This document shows, piece after piece, positions 2,184-6,659 of a stretch of 6,659 nucleotides of DNA (position 1 is its first letter; each line of letters opens with the position of its first letter). Where the stretch lies: the IMG/VR virus record IMGVR_UViG_3300018467_000013; one strand, written 5' to 3'. Position numbers and translations under genes: made by a program. The stretch is from a virus. Lineage: Duplodnaviria > Heunggongvirae > Uroviricota > Caudoviricetes. The notes beneath the pieces are model-generated. The model was not told the DNA's origin, searched no databases, and worked only from the letters and a program-made list of their open reading frames with translations.

Positions 2184-2259
2184 GCCGATATAGCTCAGTT
2201 GGTAGAGCAGCGCATTCGTAATGCGAAGGTCGTAGGTTCGACTCCTATTATCGGCACCA
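2184..2259 (+). tRNA. thrW: tRNA-Thr, anticodon CGU
   Basis: 76-nt sequence GCCGATATAGCTCAGTTGGTAGAGCAGCGCATTCGTAATGCGAAGGTCGTAGGTTCGACTCCTATTATCGGCACCA folds as a cloverleaf: 7-bp acceptor stem (GCCGATA/TATCGGC), D-arm AGCTC/GAGC, anticodon loop TTCGTAA with CGT, T-arm GTAGG/CCTAT with TTCGACT loop, encoded CCA end. Position directly downstream of proA matches the thrW locus. Confidence 0.92.
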
Positions 2260-2262
2260 TTC

Positions 2263-2425
2263 TAACGTCTCCCCAAGTCTACTCAAGTATTTAAAAACCT
2301 CTTATAATCCGCATGTTAGCGCCCCTTTTAGTCTTTTGACGTCTACTTAAGTACCCCAAAATCTACAGTCAATTGGGGGTACTTTTGGGGGTATTTGCTG
2401 TTCGGTTTAGTGGAGGTACCCCCAA
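2263..2425. repeat. attL-proximal repeat cluster, candidate integrase arm-type and excisionase binding sites
   Basis: Direct repeats GTCTACT(C/T)AAGTA at 2277-2289 and 2341-2353. G5TA/TAC5 motifs in inverted pairs: GTACCCCAAAA 2351-2361 with TTTTGGGGGTA 2384-2394, and TTGGGGGTAC 2373-2382 with GGTACCCCCAA 2416-2425. The last copy overlaps the integrase ribosome-binding site and GTG start. Confidence 0.5.
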
Positions 2426-3640
2426 GTGAAACTCAATGCCCGTCAAATAGACACTGCCAAGCCAAAAGAGAAGGCTTACAAGCTGGCTGATGGTGGTGGT
2501 CTGTATCTCCTGGTAAAACCTAGTGGAGGAAAATACTGGCGCTTTAAATATCGTGTAGCTGGTAAAGAGAAGCTGTTAGCACTAGGTGTGTATCCTGAAG
2601 TTACCTTGGCTGATGCTCGTGCAAAACGTGAAGAAGCTAAAAGGGGTATCGCTGGGGGTATCGATCCGATGGAAGCGAAACGAGAGGAAAAGATTGCCCG
2701 GGAAACGCAGTTAAACAATACCTTCAAAGATATTGCCCTTGAGTGGCACAGCAGCAAATTAAAAAAATGGTCTGCTGGTTATGCTTCAGATATCCTCGAA
2801 GCCTTCAACAAAGATGTGTTCCCTTACATTGGCAAAAAACCAATTGCCGAAATCAAACCACTTGAACTTCTGAATGTGCTGCGACGCATCGAGGGGCGCG
2901 GTGCTACAGAAAAAGCCAAAAAAGTGAGGCAGCGGTGCGGGGAAGTTTTCCGCTATGCAATAGTCACTGGTCGCGCAGAGTATAACCCTGCCCCAGATCT
3001 TACTAGCGCGATGCAAGGCCATGAATCTAATCATTATCCTTTCCTCACAGCCAAAGAATTGCCTGATTTTTTCAAGGCATTGTCCAGTTACTCAGGAAGT
3101 GCATTGGTTGTTATGGCGGCTCGTCTACTGATTATCACTGGTTTGCGAACTGGCGAACTGCGCGGTGCATTATGGGATGAAATCGATCTCAACAAGGCTA
3201 TCTGGGAGATACCTGCTTCACGGATGAAAATGCGTCGCCCTCATGTGGTGCCTTTGTCTAAGCAGGCTCTTTCTCTTATTGGGCAGATTAAAGAATTAAC
3301 TGGTAATTATCCGCTTATGTTTCCCGGCCGTAATGATCCAAGGAAAACAATGAGCGAGGCTAGCATAAACCAAGTATTTAAACGCATCGGCTATAACGGA
3401 AAGGTTACTGGTCATGGATTCCGGCACACCATGAGCACGATTTTACATGAGCAGGGCTATAACACCGCGTGGATAGAAACGCAGCTTGCACACGTTGATA
3501 AGAACTCAATTCGTGGCACGTACAATCATGCGCAATATCTGGACGGGCGGCGCGAGATGCTCCAGTGGTACGCCGACTATATGGATTCGCTCGAACATGG
3601 CGGTAACGTGGTGCATGGCAAGTTCGGAAAATGTGGATGA
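2426..3640 (+). CDS. Site-specific tyrosine recombinase, P4-family phage integrase
   Basis: 404-aa ORF with GTG start and a GGAGGT ribosome-binding site 8 bp upstream. The N-terminus (KLADGGGLYLLVKPSGGKYWRFKYRVAGKEKLLALGVYPEV) resembles the arm-binding domain of P4-type integrases. The C-terminal catalytic domain carries conserved R (RTGELRGALWDEIDL), the H-x-x-R box (HGFRHT) and the tyrosine nucleophile region (RGTYNHAQY). The gene is adjacent to the tRNA. Confidence 0.92.
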   Translation: MKLNARQIDTAKPKEKAYKLADGGGLYLLVKPSGGKYWRFKYRVAGKEKLLALGVYPEVTLADARAKREEAKRGIAGGIDPMEAKREEKIARETQLNNTFKDIALEWHSSKLKKWSAGYASDILEAFNKDVFPYIGKKPIAEIKPLELLNVLRRIEGRGATEKAKKVRQRCGEVFRYAIVTGRAEYNPAPDLTSAMQGHESNHYPFLTAKELPDFFKALSSYSGSALVVMAARLLIITGLRTGELRGALWDEIDLNKAIWEIPASRMKMRRPHVVPLSKQALSLIGQIKELTGNYPLMFPGRNDPRKTMSEASINQVFKRIGYNGKVTGHGFRHTMSTILHEQGYNTAWIETQLAHVDKNSIRGTYNHAQYLDGRREMLQWYADYMDSLEHGGNVVHGKFGKCG

Positions 3641-3762
3641 CTGGTTGCGTATACAGTAGTAGACTTTGAGCGACGAAAGAAAAGGCTGTGTCTAGGGTCG
3701 CTCCCGAAAATCCGTACACCTCGACGGACTGGTACAGCCACTACAGTAGAGGACGCTGAGGT

Positions 3763-4566
3763 GTGCGTATGATTGATATTCATGCCGAATTAAACGAATA
3801 CAAAAAAGATTTTATTTCTTTACGTGAATTTCTTGAGGTCGTGCTTAAGGTCGCTGGTGATGATTATGATGTTTCAGATGTCATAACTTGGATACTCAGG
3901 AGAATAAGCGGAGAACATATCCGCCTGTACACAGTAAATGAATTTAAGCTGTTGGAATCTTTTTGTAACCCGTATCGGGATGAATTTGATTATGATGTTC
4001 TTTATAGAAATCTGAATGCGGTTCGGAAACGTGGTTGTTTACCTGGTGAGAGGGATGAAAATGGTTTTCTGGTGTCCGGTTATTGGGAAGATCCCGAATT
4101 TGAGAACATTGGATTTATAAGGGGTGAAATTTTCGCAATTTTTCCCGATGTCCTTGACGCGTTAACGAAGCTGGAAGGCGCTAACTCTTCTGAAAATGAC
4201 GAGGCACAAGGACGCGATATTGAAAAGAAAGAGTTGCGTACAGAGGATGATTTATTATCCCAAATCGCAATGCTGGAAAAAGAAAACGCAGAGTTAAGGG
4301 CAAGGATAGAGCAGTTAGAGCAAGAGCGCCCGATACACTTATATAAATACTGGGATAAAGACCCATTAGCTAAGGCTATTGAGATTAGAAACAGAGAGTG
4401 GGCCAATTACGATCCAGAAAATGATTTTGCCACCAGGGGAAATCAAGAAGCGATAACCAGGGAGCTTAAGCAGTGGGGGGCAAGTAATGCACTTGCAACG
4501 CTCATAGAGAGGACTGCCTGCCCTATTAACCGAGACAACAGCCAAAAGAACGCAAAGCCGGATTAA
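3763..4566 (+). CDS. Hypothetical acidic coiled-coil protein (267 aa), orphan island cargo of unknown function
   Basis: Clean 804-bp ORF with GAGGT ribosome-binding site 7 bp before the ATG. It is strongly AT-rich relative to its flanks. The protein has a large excess of D/E over K/R, a central heptad-like segment (LLSQIAMLEKENAELRARIEQLEQER), and no Walker A, HTH or other motif I can recognise. It sits in the first cargo slot downstream of the integrase. Confidence 0.7.
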   Translation: MRMIDIHAELNEYKKDFISLREFLEVVLKVAGDDYDVSDVITWILRRISGEHIRLYTVNEFKLLESFCNPYRDEFDYDVLYRNLNAVRKRGCLPGERDENGFLVSGYWEDPEFENIGFIRGEIFAIFPDVLDALTKLEGANSSENDEAQGRDIEKKELRTEDDLLSQIAMLEKENAELRARIEQLEQERPIHLYKYWDKDPLAKAIEIRNREWANYDPENDFATRGNQEAITRELKQWGASNALATLIERTACPINRDNSQKNAKPD

Positions 4567-4581
4567 CGCACCATACCGCAT

Positions 4582-4723
4582 ACCCTGAGGGTGATTTACT
4601 GTTACCCTGAGGGTATTTTTTATCTTCCCCGTCAATTTTACCATCACCCTTAGGGTAGATTTCCTCCCGATTACCATCACCCTTAGGGTTAATTTCCTTC
4701 CGGTAACCATTAGGCCTGAGGGT
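4582..4723. repeat. Phased array of five near-palindromic 11-mers ACCCT(G/T)AGGGT, including 2.5 tandem copies of a ~33-bp unit; candidate operator or iteron array
   Basis: Copies at 4582-4592 and 4604-4614 (ACCCTGAGGGT), 4646-4656 and 4679-4689 (ACCCTTAGGGT, each within TTACCATCACCCTTAGGGT), and a degenerate copy at 4713-4723 (GGCCTGAGGGT). Start-to-start spacings are 22, 42, 33 and 34 bp, roughly whole helical turns. The array lies in the 226-bp gap between the orphan gene and alpA. Confidence 0.65.
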
Positions 4724-4792
4724 ATGAAAATATTCGTTATTTCTGTGCCATGATTACCTCGTCAAATTGAGTAGACGTTATGAGGTAAATAT

Positions 4793-4990
4793 ATGTCAAA
4801 TACGCTTATTCGTTTAACAGAAGTTCAGCGTAGAACTGGATATAGCAAGGCATGGATTTATCGCCTTATGGGGCAAGGTAAATTTCCTGTATCAGTTAAA
4901 ATTGGCTCGCGAGCTATTGCTTTCGTTGAGAGTGAAATTGACGAGTGGATTAATCAGCGTATTGCGGAATCACGCGGAACAGCTACCTGA
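4793..4990 (+). CDS. alpA: AlpA-family phage/island transcriptional regulator (Vis/Xis-like, MerR-type HTH)
   Basis: 65-aa ORF with GAGGT ribosome-binding site 9 bp upstream. The sequence LIRLTEVQRRTGYSKAWIYRLMGQGKFPVSVKIGSRAIAFVESEIDEWINQR matches the AlpA/Vis family signature (HTH followed by the ESEIDEW motif). Such genes typically sit near P4-type integrases. Confidence 0.85.
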   Translation: MSNTLIRLTEVQRRTGYSKAWIYRLMGQGKFPVSVKIGSRAIAFVESEIDEWINQRIAESRGTAT

Positions 4991-5067: not shown

Positions 5068-5868
5068 ATGAAATTTCCAAAAACGCCCGTACAGGGGCGG
5101 GGCTTCGTTCGGCCTGAAAACCAGAATCTGCAAAATTTCGGCGAAATTATCCCGATTATTTCCGGCGTTATTGGCGGGAGTGAAACCACTATTGTTAGCG
5201 CCAGAGCGTTACATAAGGCGTTAGGTGTAGGGCGCGTTTTCCGTTCGTGGATCAAGGGGCGCATTGAAGAATACGGGTTCACGGAAGGCGTGGATTATGA
5301 GGTTGTTGAATATTTGAGCCGACCCGATCCGGTGAGCGCAAAATCTCGCCAGCAAACCGCTCTTGAGTACATCATCACAGTGAACATGGCGAAAGAACTG
5401 GCGATGGTCGAACGTACCGAACAGGGCCGCGCCGTTCGCCAGTACTTTATCAAATGCGAGGAGGAGCTACACAAGGTTGCGCCTGTTCGTTCCGCAGCGT
5501 TACGCCGGGAACTGAAAGCCCGTATCACAGTTGCCAGCTACTTTAAGCCAATGTGTGCCGCGCTGGAGGCGTACCGGGCTGAACTGGGTAAAAACACGTT
5601 CCAGCACCACTACACCACGGAAGCCAATATGCTGGCGCGTATCGTGCTGGGTGGCATGACTGCAAAACAGTGGGCGCAGGCGAACGGCATCACAGGCGAA
5701 CCACGCGACCACATGAGCACGTTGCAGCTTGAGCACCTTTCTTACCTTGAGCAGAGCAATATCACGCTGATTGAGTTAGGCCAGGGCTACCACCAGCGGA
5801 AAGCTGAATTAATTCGTCTTTCGCAGCGTTGGTTAGCCCGTCGCATGGAGGAAAACAGCCATGTGTAA
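5068..5868 (+). CDS. Phage antirepressor-like protein with AntA/AntB-type N-terminal domain
   Basis: 266-aa ORF with AGGAG ribosome-binding site 7 bp upstream. The N-terminal segment SARALHKALGVGRVFRSWIKGRIEEYGFTEGVDYEV resembles the AntA/AntB antirepressor domain consensus. G+C is closer to host-like, and the gene is co-directional with alpA. Family assignment is from memory of the domain signature, not from a search. Confidence 0.65.
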   Translation: MKFPKTPVQGRGFVRPENQNLQNFGEIIPIISGVIGGSETTIVSARALHKALGVGRVFRSWIKGRIEEYGFTEGVDYEVVEYLSRPDPVSAKSRQQTALEYIITVNMAKELAMVERTEQGRAVRQYFIKCEEELHKVAPVRSAALRRELKARITVASYFKPMCAALEAYRAELGKNTFQHHYTTEANMLARIVLGGMTAKQWAQANGITGEPRDHMSTLQLEHLSYLEQSNITLIELGQGYHQRKAELIRLSQRWLARRMEENSHV

Positions 5869-6628
5869 CGCTCTGACCGTTACAAAAAGAGAAAGCGCCC
5901 CGTTGCCGGAGCGCCTTTGTGAACGAATAGCCTACTGCGCCATATTGCTTACTGTCTACGAGGCAGATTATAGCGTTGTGGTCGCACAGAGTGAAGGCAC
6001 TGATCACCGTTACTACAGCACGCCAGAAATGCAGAATATTTCGCTGCAAAATGCCGTTGGCCACGCTGTCCGGAAAGCAAAAAATTTTGCTGGTGGCGTG
6101 ACTGATGCGATTTTGTCAGGTCACCAGGTGCTGATCAATCTGATGTCTGATTTCGTTCTGGATAAAACAAAGGCGACTGCAGAGGGCCACCAGTGGGAAA
6201 GCTACACACTTGAACACATTGCCAACAATGCCAGATTTGCGGCTGGTGGGCAATGTGATCAGTGTGCTGGCTTGCTGGTGGGCTATTCATGCTCTTTAAC
6301 ATTGCCATGCCGCGATGTTTTCCAGGTATGTGATCCCATTTTTGTGCGCCTGTACTCTTTAAGGAATTGCTCAAGGGCAAAAGCACATGGCGCGAATCTT
6401 TCTGATTCATGCTCTATCTTTCTGCGCCGTCTTTTCCGTGCCGGTGATAATGTTTTGGTCAATTCTTTATCGGTCATTGTGTTGTCCTGCATAGCAATGC
6501 GCCGTAATACCTTACACCACGGCGCTGATGGTGATTACTCTGGTTCTTTGGTCTTGCGACGCTGGAGTTCTTCGCGTGCAACGGTGACAAGCTGCCCGAT
6601 TTCTTCCGCTGCTTTGATGCCGATTTGA
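5861..6628 (+). CDS. Uncertain ORF; the 5' portion (to about 6300) may be a real coupled gene, the 3' portion is probably non-coding read-through
   Basis: The ATG at 5861 overlaps the upstream stop in ATGTGTAA, a translational-coupling arrangement. The ORF has no stop until a TGA formed at the adapter junction (6626-6628). Its last ~100 codons are rich in rare codons (AGG, ATA, TCA) and give a Cys/Ser/Arg/Leu-rich translation, whereas the opposite strand reads as a plausible protein C-terminus. Confidence 0.3.
   Translation: MCNALTVTKRESAPLPERLCERIAYCAILLTVYEADYSVVVAQSEGTDHRYYSTPEMQNISLQNAVGHAVRKAKNFAGGVTDAILSGHQVLINLMSDFVLDKTKATAEGHQWESYTLEHIANNARFAAGGQCDQCAGLLVGYSCSLTLPCRDVFQVCDPIFVRLYSLRNCSRAKAHGANLSDSCSIFLRRLFRAGDNVLVNSLSVIVLSCIAMRRNTLHHGADGDYSGSLVLRRWSSSRATVTSCPISSAALMPI
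6535..6627 (-). CDS. C-terminal fragment (30 codons plus stop) of a convergent gene whose body lies beyond the contig end
   Basis: Reverse-complement translation from 6627 gives QIGIKAAEEIGQLVTVAREELQRRKTKEPE followed by TAA (6537-6535), using common host codons and with a protein-like amphipathic composition. The frame is open to the adapter junction. Confidence 0.35.
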   Translation of the reverse strand, partial: QIGIKAAEEIGQLVTVAREELQRRKTKEPE

Positions 6629-6659
6629 GATCGGAAGAGCACACGTCTGAACTCCAGTC
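6628..6659. other. Illumina TruSeq adapter sequence (technical artefact, not genomic)
   Basis: AGATCGGAAGAGCACACGTCTGAACTCCAGTC matches the standard TruSeq read-through adapter prefix exactly. Confidence 0.95.

Follow-up and report, generated by a model that had tools for sequence, protein, structure and literature searches.

Helical-turn-phased RTCTAC boxes at attL, after int and in the alpA leader of a P4-like island at thrW are candidate binding sites of AlpA

Vis of phage P4 binds attP DNA in electrophoretic mobility shift and footprinting assays, and also binds RNA (PMC2603039, PMC2951348); it bends attP DNA and lowers int expression (PMC2603039, PMC7498355, PMC2951348). In KplE1 (CPS-53), TorI has five sites at attL, grouped as a pair and a triplet that separate the core from the arm sites of IntS, and int is controlled by both the integrase and the recombination directionality factor (RDF) (PMC2951348). 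Direct repeats spaced by a helical turn are the known layout of directionality-factor sites (PMC7498355, PMC2951348). AlpA is the master switch of Gram-negative phage-inducible islands. In phage-inducible chromosomal islands (PICIs) it is a positive autoregulator (PMC6092414), and in EcCICFT073 it activates its own promoter and triggers int-dependent excision and replication (PMC6092414). The DNA target of AlpA is not defined in the literature searched (PMC6092414, PMC11773190, PMC10111431). Here we describe the viral record IMGVR_UViG_3300018467_000013, a stretch of 6,659 nucleotides (the window) which, to judge from its genes, is the thrW tRNA-Thr gene plus the int-alpA module of a P4-like or PICI-type satellite. 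It carries boxes of the form RTCTAC, and we consider it moderately probable that these are binding sites of the island AlpA, acting as a Vis/Xis-type directionality factor and transcription regulator.

The attachment region of the island comprises the following features:

2184..2259, plus strand: tRNA-Thr(CGT) gene thrW, the integration target (ARAGORN; Rfam tRNA, 71.8 bits)
2242..2262, plus strand: attachment (att) core CTCCTATTATCGGCACCATT; E. coli 55989, whose island is intact, has a degenerate repeat of it at attR
2263..2289, plus strand: box block 1, with GTCTCC at 2267 and GTCTAC at 2277, 10 bp apart
2329..2369, plus strand: box block 2, with GTCTTT at 2331, GTCTAC at 2341, the degenerate GTACCC at 2351 and ATCTAC at 2361, each 10 bp apart
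2374..2394, plus strand: two direct TGGGGGTAY repeats (2374-2382 and 2386-2394) on the int-proximal arm, integrase arm-type sites
2416..2424, minus strand: inverted third repeat of the TGGGGGTAY type, GTACCCCCA, between the int Shine-Dalgarno (SD) sequence and the GTG start
2426..3640, plus strand: int, a P4-family tyrosine integrase of 404 amino acids with a GTG start (Pfam Arm-DNA-bind_3, Phage_int_M, Phage_integrase)

P4 Int is 43% identical to the window Int over its full length, and P4 Vis is 37% identical to AlpA. The two attachment layouts are homologous, as both have a core at a tRNA end, two blocks of 10-bp-phased boxes, two direct arm repeats of the GGGGG type that are matched by another two on the opposite arm, and an inverted arm repeat where int begins. 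In the attP interval of P4, NTCC boxes stand at offsets 30/40/50 and 93/103/113/123 from the core and are followed by the arm repeats; in 2004, Cali et al. reportedly located a pair of Vis-protected boxes in the stretch from the core to int. The P4 annotation assigns the label 'attP arm sequence repeat' to two TTGGGGGCAT on each arm and to an inverted one over the int ATG. The island combines the parts of a P4-type module: its core lies within a tRNA gene 3' end, the arm repeats are doubled at attL and at attR and inverted once at the int start, the tyrosine integrase is of the P4 family with an N-terminal arm-binding domain (heterobivalent), and the element encodes a directionality factor of the AlpA/Vis family. 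P4 differs in its box, which is NTCC and not RTCTAC, and in having neither boxes after the int stop nor an int-alpA RNA. In addition, P4 vis lies far from int at the late promoter PLL, whereas the window alpA lies 1.2 kb downstream of int in the same direction.

A first-pass annotation of this DNA had linked the attL region to the alpA promoter region through four copies of GTCTACT, which it judged unlikely to have arisen by chance. All four were confirmed by direct reading: TAACGTCT at 2263-2270 and AGTCTACTCAAGTA at 2276-2289, which together are block 1; GACGTCTACTTAAGTA at 2338-2353, which block 2 takes in; AGTAGAC at 3658-3664; and, in the alpA leader, TTGAGTAGACGTTA at 4767-4780, with TAACGTCTACTCAA as its reverse complement. 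A fifth copy had been missed, on the plus strand inside int (3123-3129); relatives do not conserve it (the corresponding bin is occupied in 2 of 61 loci), and it probably reflects coding sequence or chance and not a site. The excess over chance is borne out, as five GTCTACT on both strands of the window compare with 0.27 expected and none of 200 dinucleotide shuffles reaches five. With at most one mismatch, GTCTACTYAA has three sites against 0.40 expected, and TAACGTCT occurs twice against 0.11 expected. In two 44-kb loci, L001 (the same island in E. coli TUM9757) and L081 (the intact island in E. coli 55989), all five GTCTACT fall in the attL-alpA interval of 2.5 kb, the remainder of each locus being free of them, and a separate 92 kb of E. 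coli DNA holds two copies. This confinement, together with the shuffle excess, indicates that the motif is real and tightly clustered.

For comparison, 79 loci with integrases 61-99% identical to the window Int were assembled from many Enterobacterales, of which 61 were kept after removal of redundancy. Across these 61 loci, plus-strand GTCTAC has 63 copies at -200 to -50 of int and almost none elsewhere. Box-to-box distances of RTCTAC peak at 10 (52 pairs) and 20 (33 pairs), then at 53/63/73/83. In the family layout, block 1 consists of two boxes directly after the tRNA end and block 2, some 50 bp on, of three to four boxes; this architecture from tRNA end to int is kept among relatives sited in at least four different tRNA genes. 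The boxes are thus head-to-tail direct repeats one helical turn apart, placed between the core and the Int arm sites and on one arm, which is the layout of RDF sites. A ranking of 6-mers made without reference to the motif puts GTAGAC/GTCTAC first in attL and, with a poly-A word set aside, AGTAGA/GTAGAC first after int. As a side observation, a consensus scan returned a minus-strand promoter-like site at 2259-2286 (TTGAGT, 16 nt, TAGAAT), probably by chance; its -35 corresponds to box B in reverse complement, and transcription from it would run antisense into thrW.

The arm-type sites of the integrase could be told apart from the boxes. An intact attR was located in E. coli 55989, where it reads TTCCTATTATCG-CACCATT, a degenerate copy of the tRNA end; a TGGGGGTACTTTTGGGGGTAT pair lies there, as at attL, approximately 70 bp inside the core (~35359-35379 of L081). 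A search of L001 for attR as a direct repeat of the tRNA end found none, and the island there adjoins the CP4-6 intF remnant. Among relatives, the G-rich arm repeat switches with the Int clade (GGGGGTA, GGGGGCA, GTGTATAG, TTGTATAG), and the inverted copy at the int start switches in concert. AlpA and the RTCTAC boxes stay constant while the arm repeats change, for instance between L038 and L059. The presence of TGGGGGTAY on both arms, its covariation with Int and its match to the annotated P4 repeats identify it as the Int arm-type site. RTCTAC does not behave in this way, being essentially limited to the int-proximal arm and invariant across Int clades. Since TGGGGGTAY already serves the Int arm domain, a different reader is needed for the RTCTAC boxes. 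The direct and inverted TGGGGGTAY copies could also form an RNA hairpin masking the int start, provided that the tRNA promoter drives transcription here as it does in ICEKp1.

Downstream of the attachment region, the boxes recur on the minus strand at two further places, which stand among these features:

3649..3674, minus strand: post-int boxes 10 bp apart, with GTATAC at 3649 (one mismatch), GTAGAC at 3659 and AGCGAC at 3669 (degenerate)
3685..3752, plus strand: int-alpA RNA (Rfam RF02996; 45.5 bits, gathering threshold 35.8; E 3.5e-7), a candidate small RNA
4746..4754, plus strand: probable extended -10 of alpA, TGcCATGAT, as read from the sequence and conserved relatives
4755..4787, plus strand: alpA leader hairpin, with an 8-bp stem TACCTCGT/ATGAGGTA and a 17-nt loop, the 3' arm of which holds the SD sequence GAGG
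4767..4780, minus strand: alpA leader box TAACGTCTACTCAA in the hairpin loop, plus-strand core GTAGAC at 4771-4776
4793..4990, plus strand: alpA, an AlpA/Vis-family winged-helix protein of 65 amino acids (Pfam Phage_AlpA, 4.6e-19)

The copy that the first-pass annotation placed just after the int stop is the middle post-int box (3659-3664), the only perfect one of its group in the window. It turns out to be a family feature, as the first 150 nt past the int stop contain 33 minus-strand copies of GTCTAC across the set of 61 loci, with a family consensus GAATAGACAGTG..GTAGTAGACTTCTGTAGACGAAC at 10-bp spacing. The int-alpA RNA starts approximately 20 nt downstream of these boxes, which are also present in loci without the RNA (L004, L028). 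Compensatory changes are seen in the RNA among relatives (GGCTGTG/TACAGCC vs GGCTATG/CATAGCC; CCCGTA/TGCGGG vs CCAGTA/TACTGG).

In the alpA leader, the hairpin of the window has a predicted energy of -8.7 kcal/mol (RNAfold), with 8 of 9 SD positions paired. Most relatives have an SD hairpin with differing arms (CTCGTAA/TTACGAG, CTCCTGTAG/CTACAGGAG, CCCCTGTT/AACAGGGG, CCTCTC/GAGAGG). Its z-scores are moderate (mean -1.0, 31% below -2), the 45-nt span folded clipping the long-loop types, and an RNA structure in the leader is plausible on these predictions. CGTCTA is the top 6-mer in alpA leaders, found in 13 of 28 non-redundant leaders against a background of 0.8% per window. Leader types were defined by ungapped identity, since global alignment had chained all leaders into one cluster; the cognate box is present in 11 of 18 types, which are not fully independent, against 8% expected (binomial 2e-8). 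A consensus promoter scan of the tRNA-int interval and of the region upstream of alpA returned no canonical plus-strand promoter. The first-pass annotation was right in placing a copy 5' of the alpA ribosome-binding site; the copy sits, however, in the transcribed leader hairpin, between the probable -10 and the SD sequence, and not upstream of the promoter. Its position at approximately +10 to +16 of the probable transcript, inside an SD-sequestering hairpin, suggests repression or a post-transcriptional effect over classical activation.

The class of box may follow the AlpA allele. RTCTAY boxes are found in all 28 loci with window-type AlpA. In 15 loci, RTCAAY boxes occupy the same positions; none of these has window-type AlpA, and several are without an identified RDF. 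Within the RTCAAY group, L019-L027 are the sister of the window Int clade and encode a divergent AlpA (approximately 35% identical), the leader loop of which reads GTTGAC in L021 and L025 (2 of 5 non-redundant loci) and GTTGAT in L027. The P4 vis leader ends in ..TGGACATTAACGAGGTAG.., which can be aligned with the window-type alpA leader, and it carries TGGAC alongside GTCC-type att boxes. Taken together, the distribution of boxes among AlpA alleles, the P4 vis leader and the box found at three places in EcCICFT073 (see below) point to AlpA as the common reader. The proposal of the first-pass annotation, a common Vis/Xis-like reader at attL and alpA, is thereby favored by box layout, comparison and P4 homology, while its leader copy is no classical upstream operator.

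Under the reading that we favor, AlpA monomers would bind cooperatively to the two head-to-tail box blocks at attL (2267/2277 and 2331-2361). This binding would bend attL DNA and so allow Int to bridge arm and core for excision. AlpA would also bind the inverted post-int boxes (3649-3674), upstream of the int-alpA RNA, and the single alpA-leader box (4767-4780), which would provide feedback on its own transcription or translation. We infer both that AlpA is the binder and what the sign of the feedback may be.

Several observations weigh against this reading. The related loci share common ancestry, and counts among them therefore exceed the number of independent observations. The 10-14-nt extended identity between attL and the alpA leader, to which the first-pass annotation gave weight, holds in the window (p 0.003, longest common substring against dinucleotide shuffles); in 35 related loci, by contrast, the longest shared string is of chance length (combined p 0.42). 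The case thus rests on motif-specific enrichment and position and not on extended identity. Family-wide, the common part is a core of only 5-8 nt, and the TAAC flank of the first half-motif differs even in close relatives (TAATGTCT in E. coli 55989 and E. ruysiae). At attR of E. coli 55989, the arm also carries one degenerate GTCTA box (AGTCTAATCA). Strict 6-mer counts give 8 cognate vs 2 non-cognate boxes for the 31 window-type leaders and 2 vs 0 for the 5 of divergent type. Window-type leaders often contain ATCAAY as well; L011 combines a divergent AlpA with T-type boxes and lacks a leader box; and L008-type leaders read TGGAC beside GTCTAC boxes at attL. Covariation of the T and A classes in leaders is blurred by the window-type ATCAAY, L004 and L011, and the covariation of box with AlpA allele, comprising few independent events with exceptions, is only suggestive. 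In CP4-57, the AAGTCC box of that element is absent from the alpA leader and from the region after intA. Finally, a box located 3' of the probable -10 is hard to reconcile with the positive autoregulation of PICI AlpA.

One alternative, which we regard as unlikely, limits protein binding to the attL boxes and, probably, the post-int boxes; the alpA-leader copy would be kept as part of an SD-masking RNA hairpin (its loop plus 3' arm), and its likeness to att would be coincidental. Such a view draws on hairpin arms that differ among relatives yet remain complementary, on the null outcome of the locus-by-locus identity test, on the 7 of 18 leader types without a box, and on the CP4-57 leader, which is without its own att box. 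However, a stem alone cannot account for conservation of the loop sequence. CGTCTA would not be expected as the commonest leader 6-mer; the box occurs in several mutually unalignable leader types and in both orientations; and the divergent-allele class and P4 each hold their own att-type core in the loop.

It is quite improbable that the boxes act as RNA, with GUCUAC in the int 5' untranslated region (UTR) pairing with GUAGAC in the alpA loop or at the int 3' end, or with AlpA binding the RNA loop. The premise is that the tRNA-int interval is read through from the tRNA promoter, and in either form int transcription would be coupled to alpA translation. In ICEKp1, which has an integrase of the same family, int is transcribed from the tRNA-Asn promoter and promoter activity of the 5' flank is negligible (PMC13023037); read-through of this type would place the attL boxes in RNA too, which leaves some probability for a role at the RNA level. 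RNA binding has been reported for Vis (PMC2603039, PMC2951348), and its reported recognition of int mRNA offers a model for AlpA on leader RNA. Twelve nucleotides of pairing are possible between the alpA loop UUGAGUAGACGU and 2339-2350 (inverted repeat I22), and a 31-nt inverted repeat (2260-2290/3651-3681) is 74% complementary, but the complementarity is confined to the box of approximately 10 nt. Moreover, strict 10-bp phasing of direct repeats is a property of the DNA helix and has no RNA rationale, and the leader boxes of L003, L009, L029 and L032 have the same sense as those at attL and are unable to pair with the int 5' UTR. We place little credence in recognition of the alpA-leader box itself at the RNA level, be it by AlpA or by complementary boxes of the int 5' UTR. 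If true, it would tie translation of the master activator to the AlpA level or to tRNA read-through, and would make the post-int boxes and the int-alpA RNA part of the same circuit.

The lambda arm-type consensus is (C/A)AGTCACTAT, with P'1-P'3 in tandem, and the consensus for integration host factor (IHF) is WATCAANNNNTTR. About as improbable as an RNA role is recognition of the boxes by host IHF or Fis, or by the integrase as arm or accessory sites of a second type: the lambda consensus resembles AAGTCTACT, the boxes are likewise tandem, one degenerate box lies on the attR arm and boxes are kept across all Int clades sampled, but the motif is unlike the IHF consensus, the integrase arm domain (proposed as a reader by the first-pass annotation) is disfavored by the TGGGGGTAY evidence given above, and the switch of RTCTAC to RTCAAC between sister Int clades, which recurs in distant ones within the same host genera, counts against both the integrase and a host factor.

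The window thus far described holds the left end of a mobile island, next to chromosomal genes. Upstream of thrW lie the 3' part of proB and then proA, and downstream lie int, a 267-amino-acid open reading frame, alpA and an AntA/Bro-type gene. The two genes not listed above are as follows:

3763-4566, plus strand: orf267, the 267-amino-acid open reading frame between int and alpA, without a Pfam match
5068-5868: AntA/Bro-type gene

The slot of orf267 in the int-alpA interval holds variable cargo in relatives, and distant homologues of orf267 occur in L012, L013 and L031 (33-43% identity over partial length). A palindrome, ACCCTnAGGGT, is found five times between orf267 and alpA (4582, 4604, 4646, 4679, and the degenerate GCCTGAGGGT at 4714), the last directly beside the place of the -35 in the probable alpA promoter. 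Similar sequences are present in relatives that have an orf267-like gene (L013). The palindromes could serve as sites of a dimeric regulator, either activating or repressing, which may be the helper-phage signal or the product of orf267. A PDB sequence search with AlpA gave the AlpA-family entry 8c3t as the sole match, which holds no DNA complex to inform specificity.

The window ends at 6628-6659 in AGATCGGAAGAGCACACGTCTGAACTCCAGTC, which we take to be the Illumina TruSeq read-through adapter, and homology to E. coli genomes ends at approximately 6617; we conclude that the final ~32 bases come from an adapter left untrimmed at the contig end and not from the genome. Among complete E. coli genomes, the island is present at 96-99% identity in 106 assemblies and is approximately 15 kb long. 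Its order in L001 and L081 is int, a hypothetical gene, alpA, antA/antB, YlcI/YnfO, Icd-like, DUF4222, primase/DUF927, ProQ/FinO and PerC. Integration, Bro, replication and late zones make up the layout of Gram-negative PICIs and P4-like satellites (PMC10111431), and the island has this order: int and alpA, a Bro/AntA zone, replication genes (Icd-like, primase) and a late zone.

Compared with other described systems, KplE1 resembles the window in having a tRNA-proximal int and arm sites that overlap the int control region (PMC2951348). It differs in its box, which is unrelated (GTTCG core), in the location of torI at the far prophage end, and in that an RDF box in the torI leader has not been reported. 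Apl of 186 and Cox of P2 are like the proposed AlpA in that one small protein uses direct repeats spaced by 10-11 bp at att and at a promoter (PMC7498355); their protein and integrase families are different, and their promoter arrays have 6-7 repeats vs the single leader box of the window. CP4-57 of E. coli K-12, the original AlpA system, is built alike at att; its boxes read AAGTCC, and each arm bears TAGGCCCA repeats. Specifically, two GAAGTCC(T/G)AAGAG boxes follow ssrA, and two TAGGCCCA and an inverted TGGGCCTA precede intA (L082 560-760), with a TAGGACCA/TGGGACCA pair at attR (L082 22500-22560).

EcCICFT073 has the gene order of the window (int, alpA, YlcI/YnfO, Icd-like, DUF4222, primase genes), without an annotated counterpart of the AntA/Bro gene. 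Its Int is 25% and its AlpA 36% identical to those of the window, and it is integrated beside roxA and not in a tRNA gene. Its own 10-bp-phased box, TTGTNNC, occurs at the same three places (L084 9195-9513, E. coli CFT073): four copies at attL, six on the minus strand after int and two to three upstream of alpA. Doubled GGTGTAGTTAAT arm repeats are present at attL and also at attR. The boxes upstream of alpA lie 50-90 bp from the start codon and not in an SD hairpin loop as in the window. The TTGTNNC boxes are candidate AlpA operators of that island.

The use of one box arrangement for excision and for control of the factor's own gene is known already from phage P4; the window carries a P4-type module with a probable dual-purpose directionality factor, and no new kind of mechanism is revealed. 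What the comparison yields is a candidate AlpA operator, RTCTAC phased at 10 bp, now separated from the integrase arm sites. This may be of use in designing att substrates, in predicting cross-induction of islands by AlpA alleles and in placing the int-alpA RNA beside a regulated site. From the sequences compared, the three-location layout of attL, post-int region and alpA leader seems general for int-alpA modules; EcCICFT073 shows it with a different box, and P4 with a related one.

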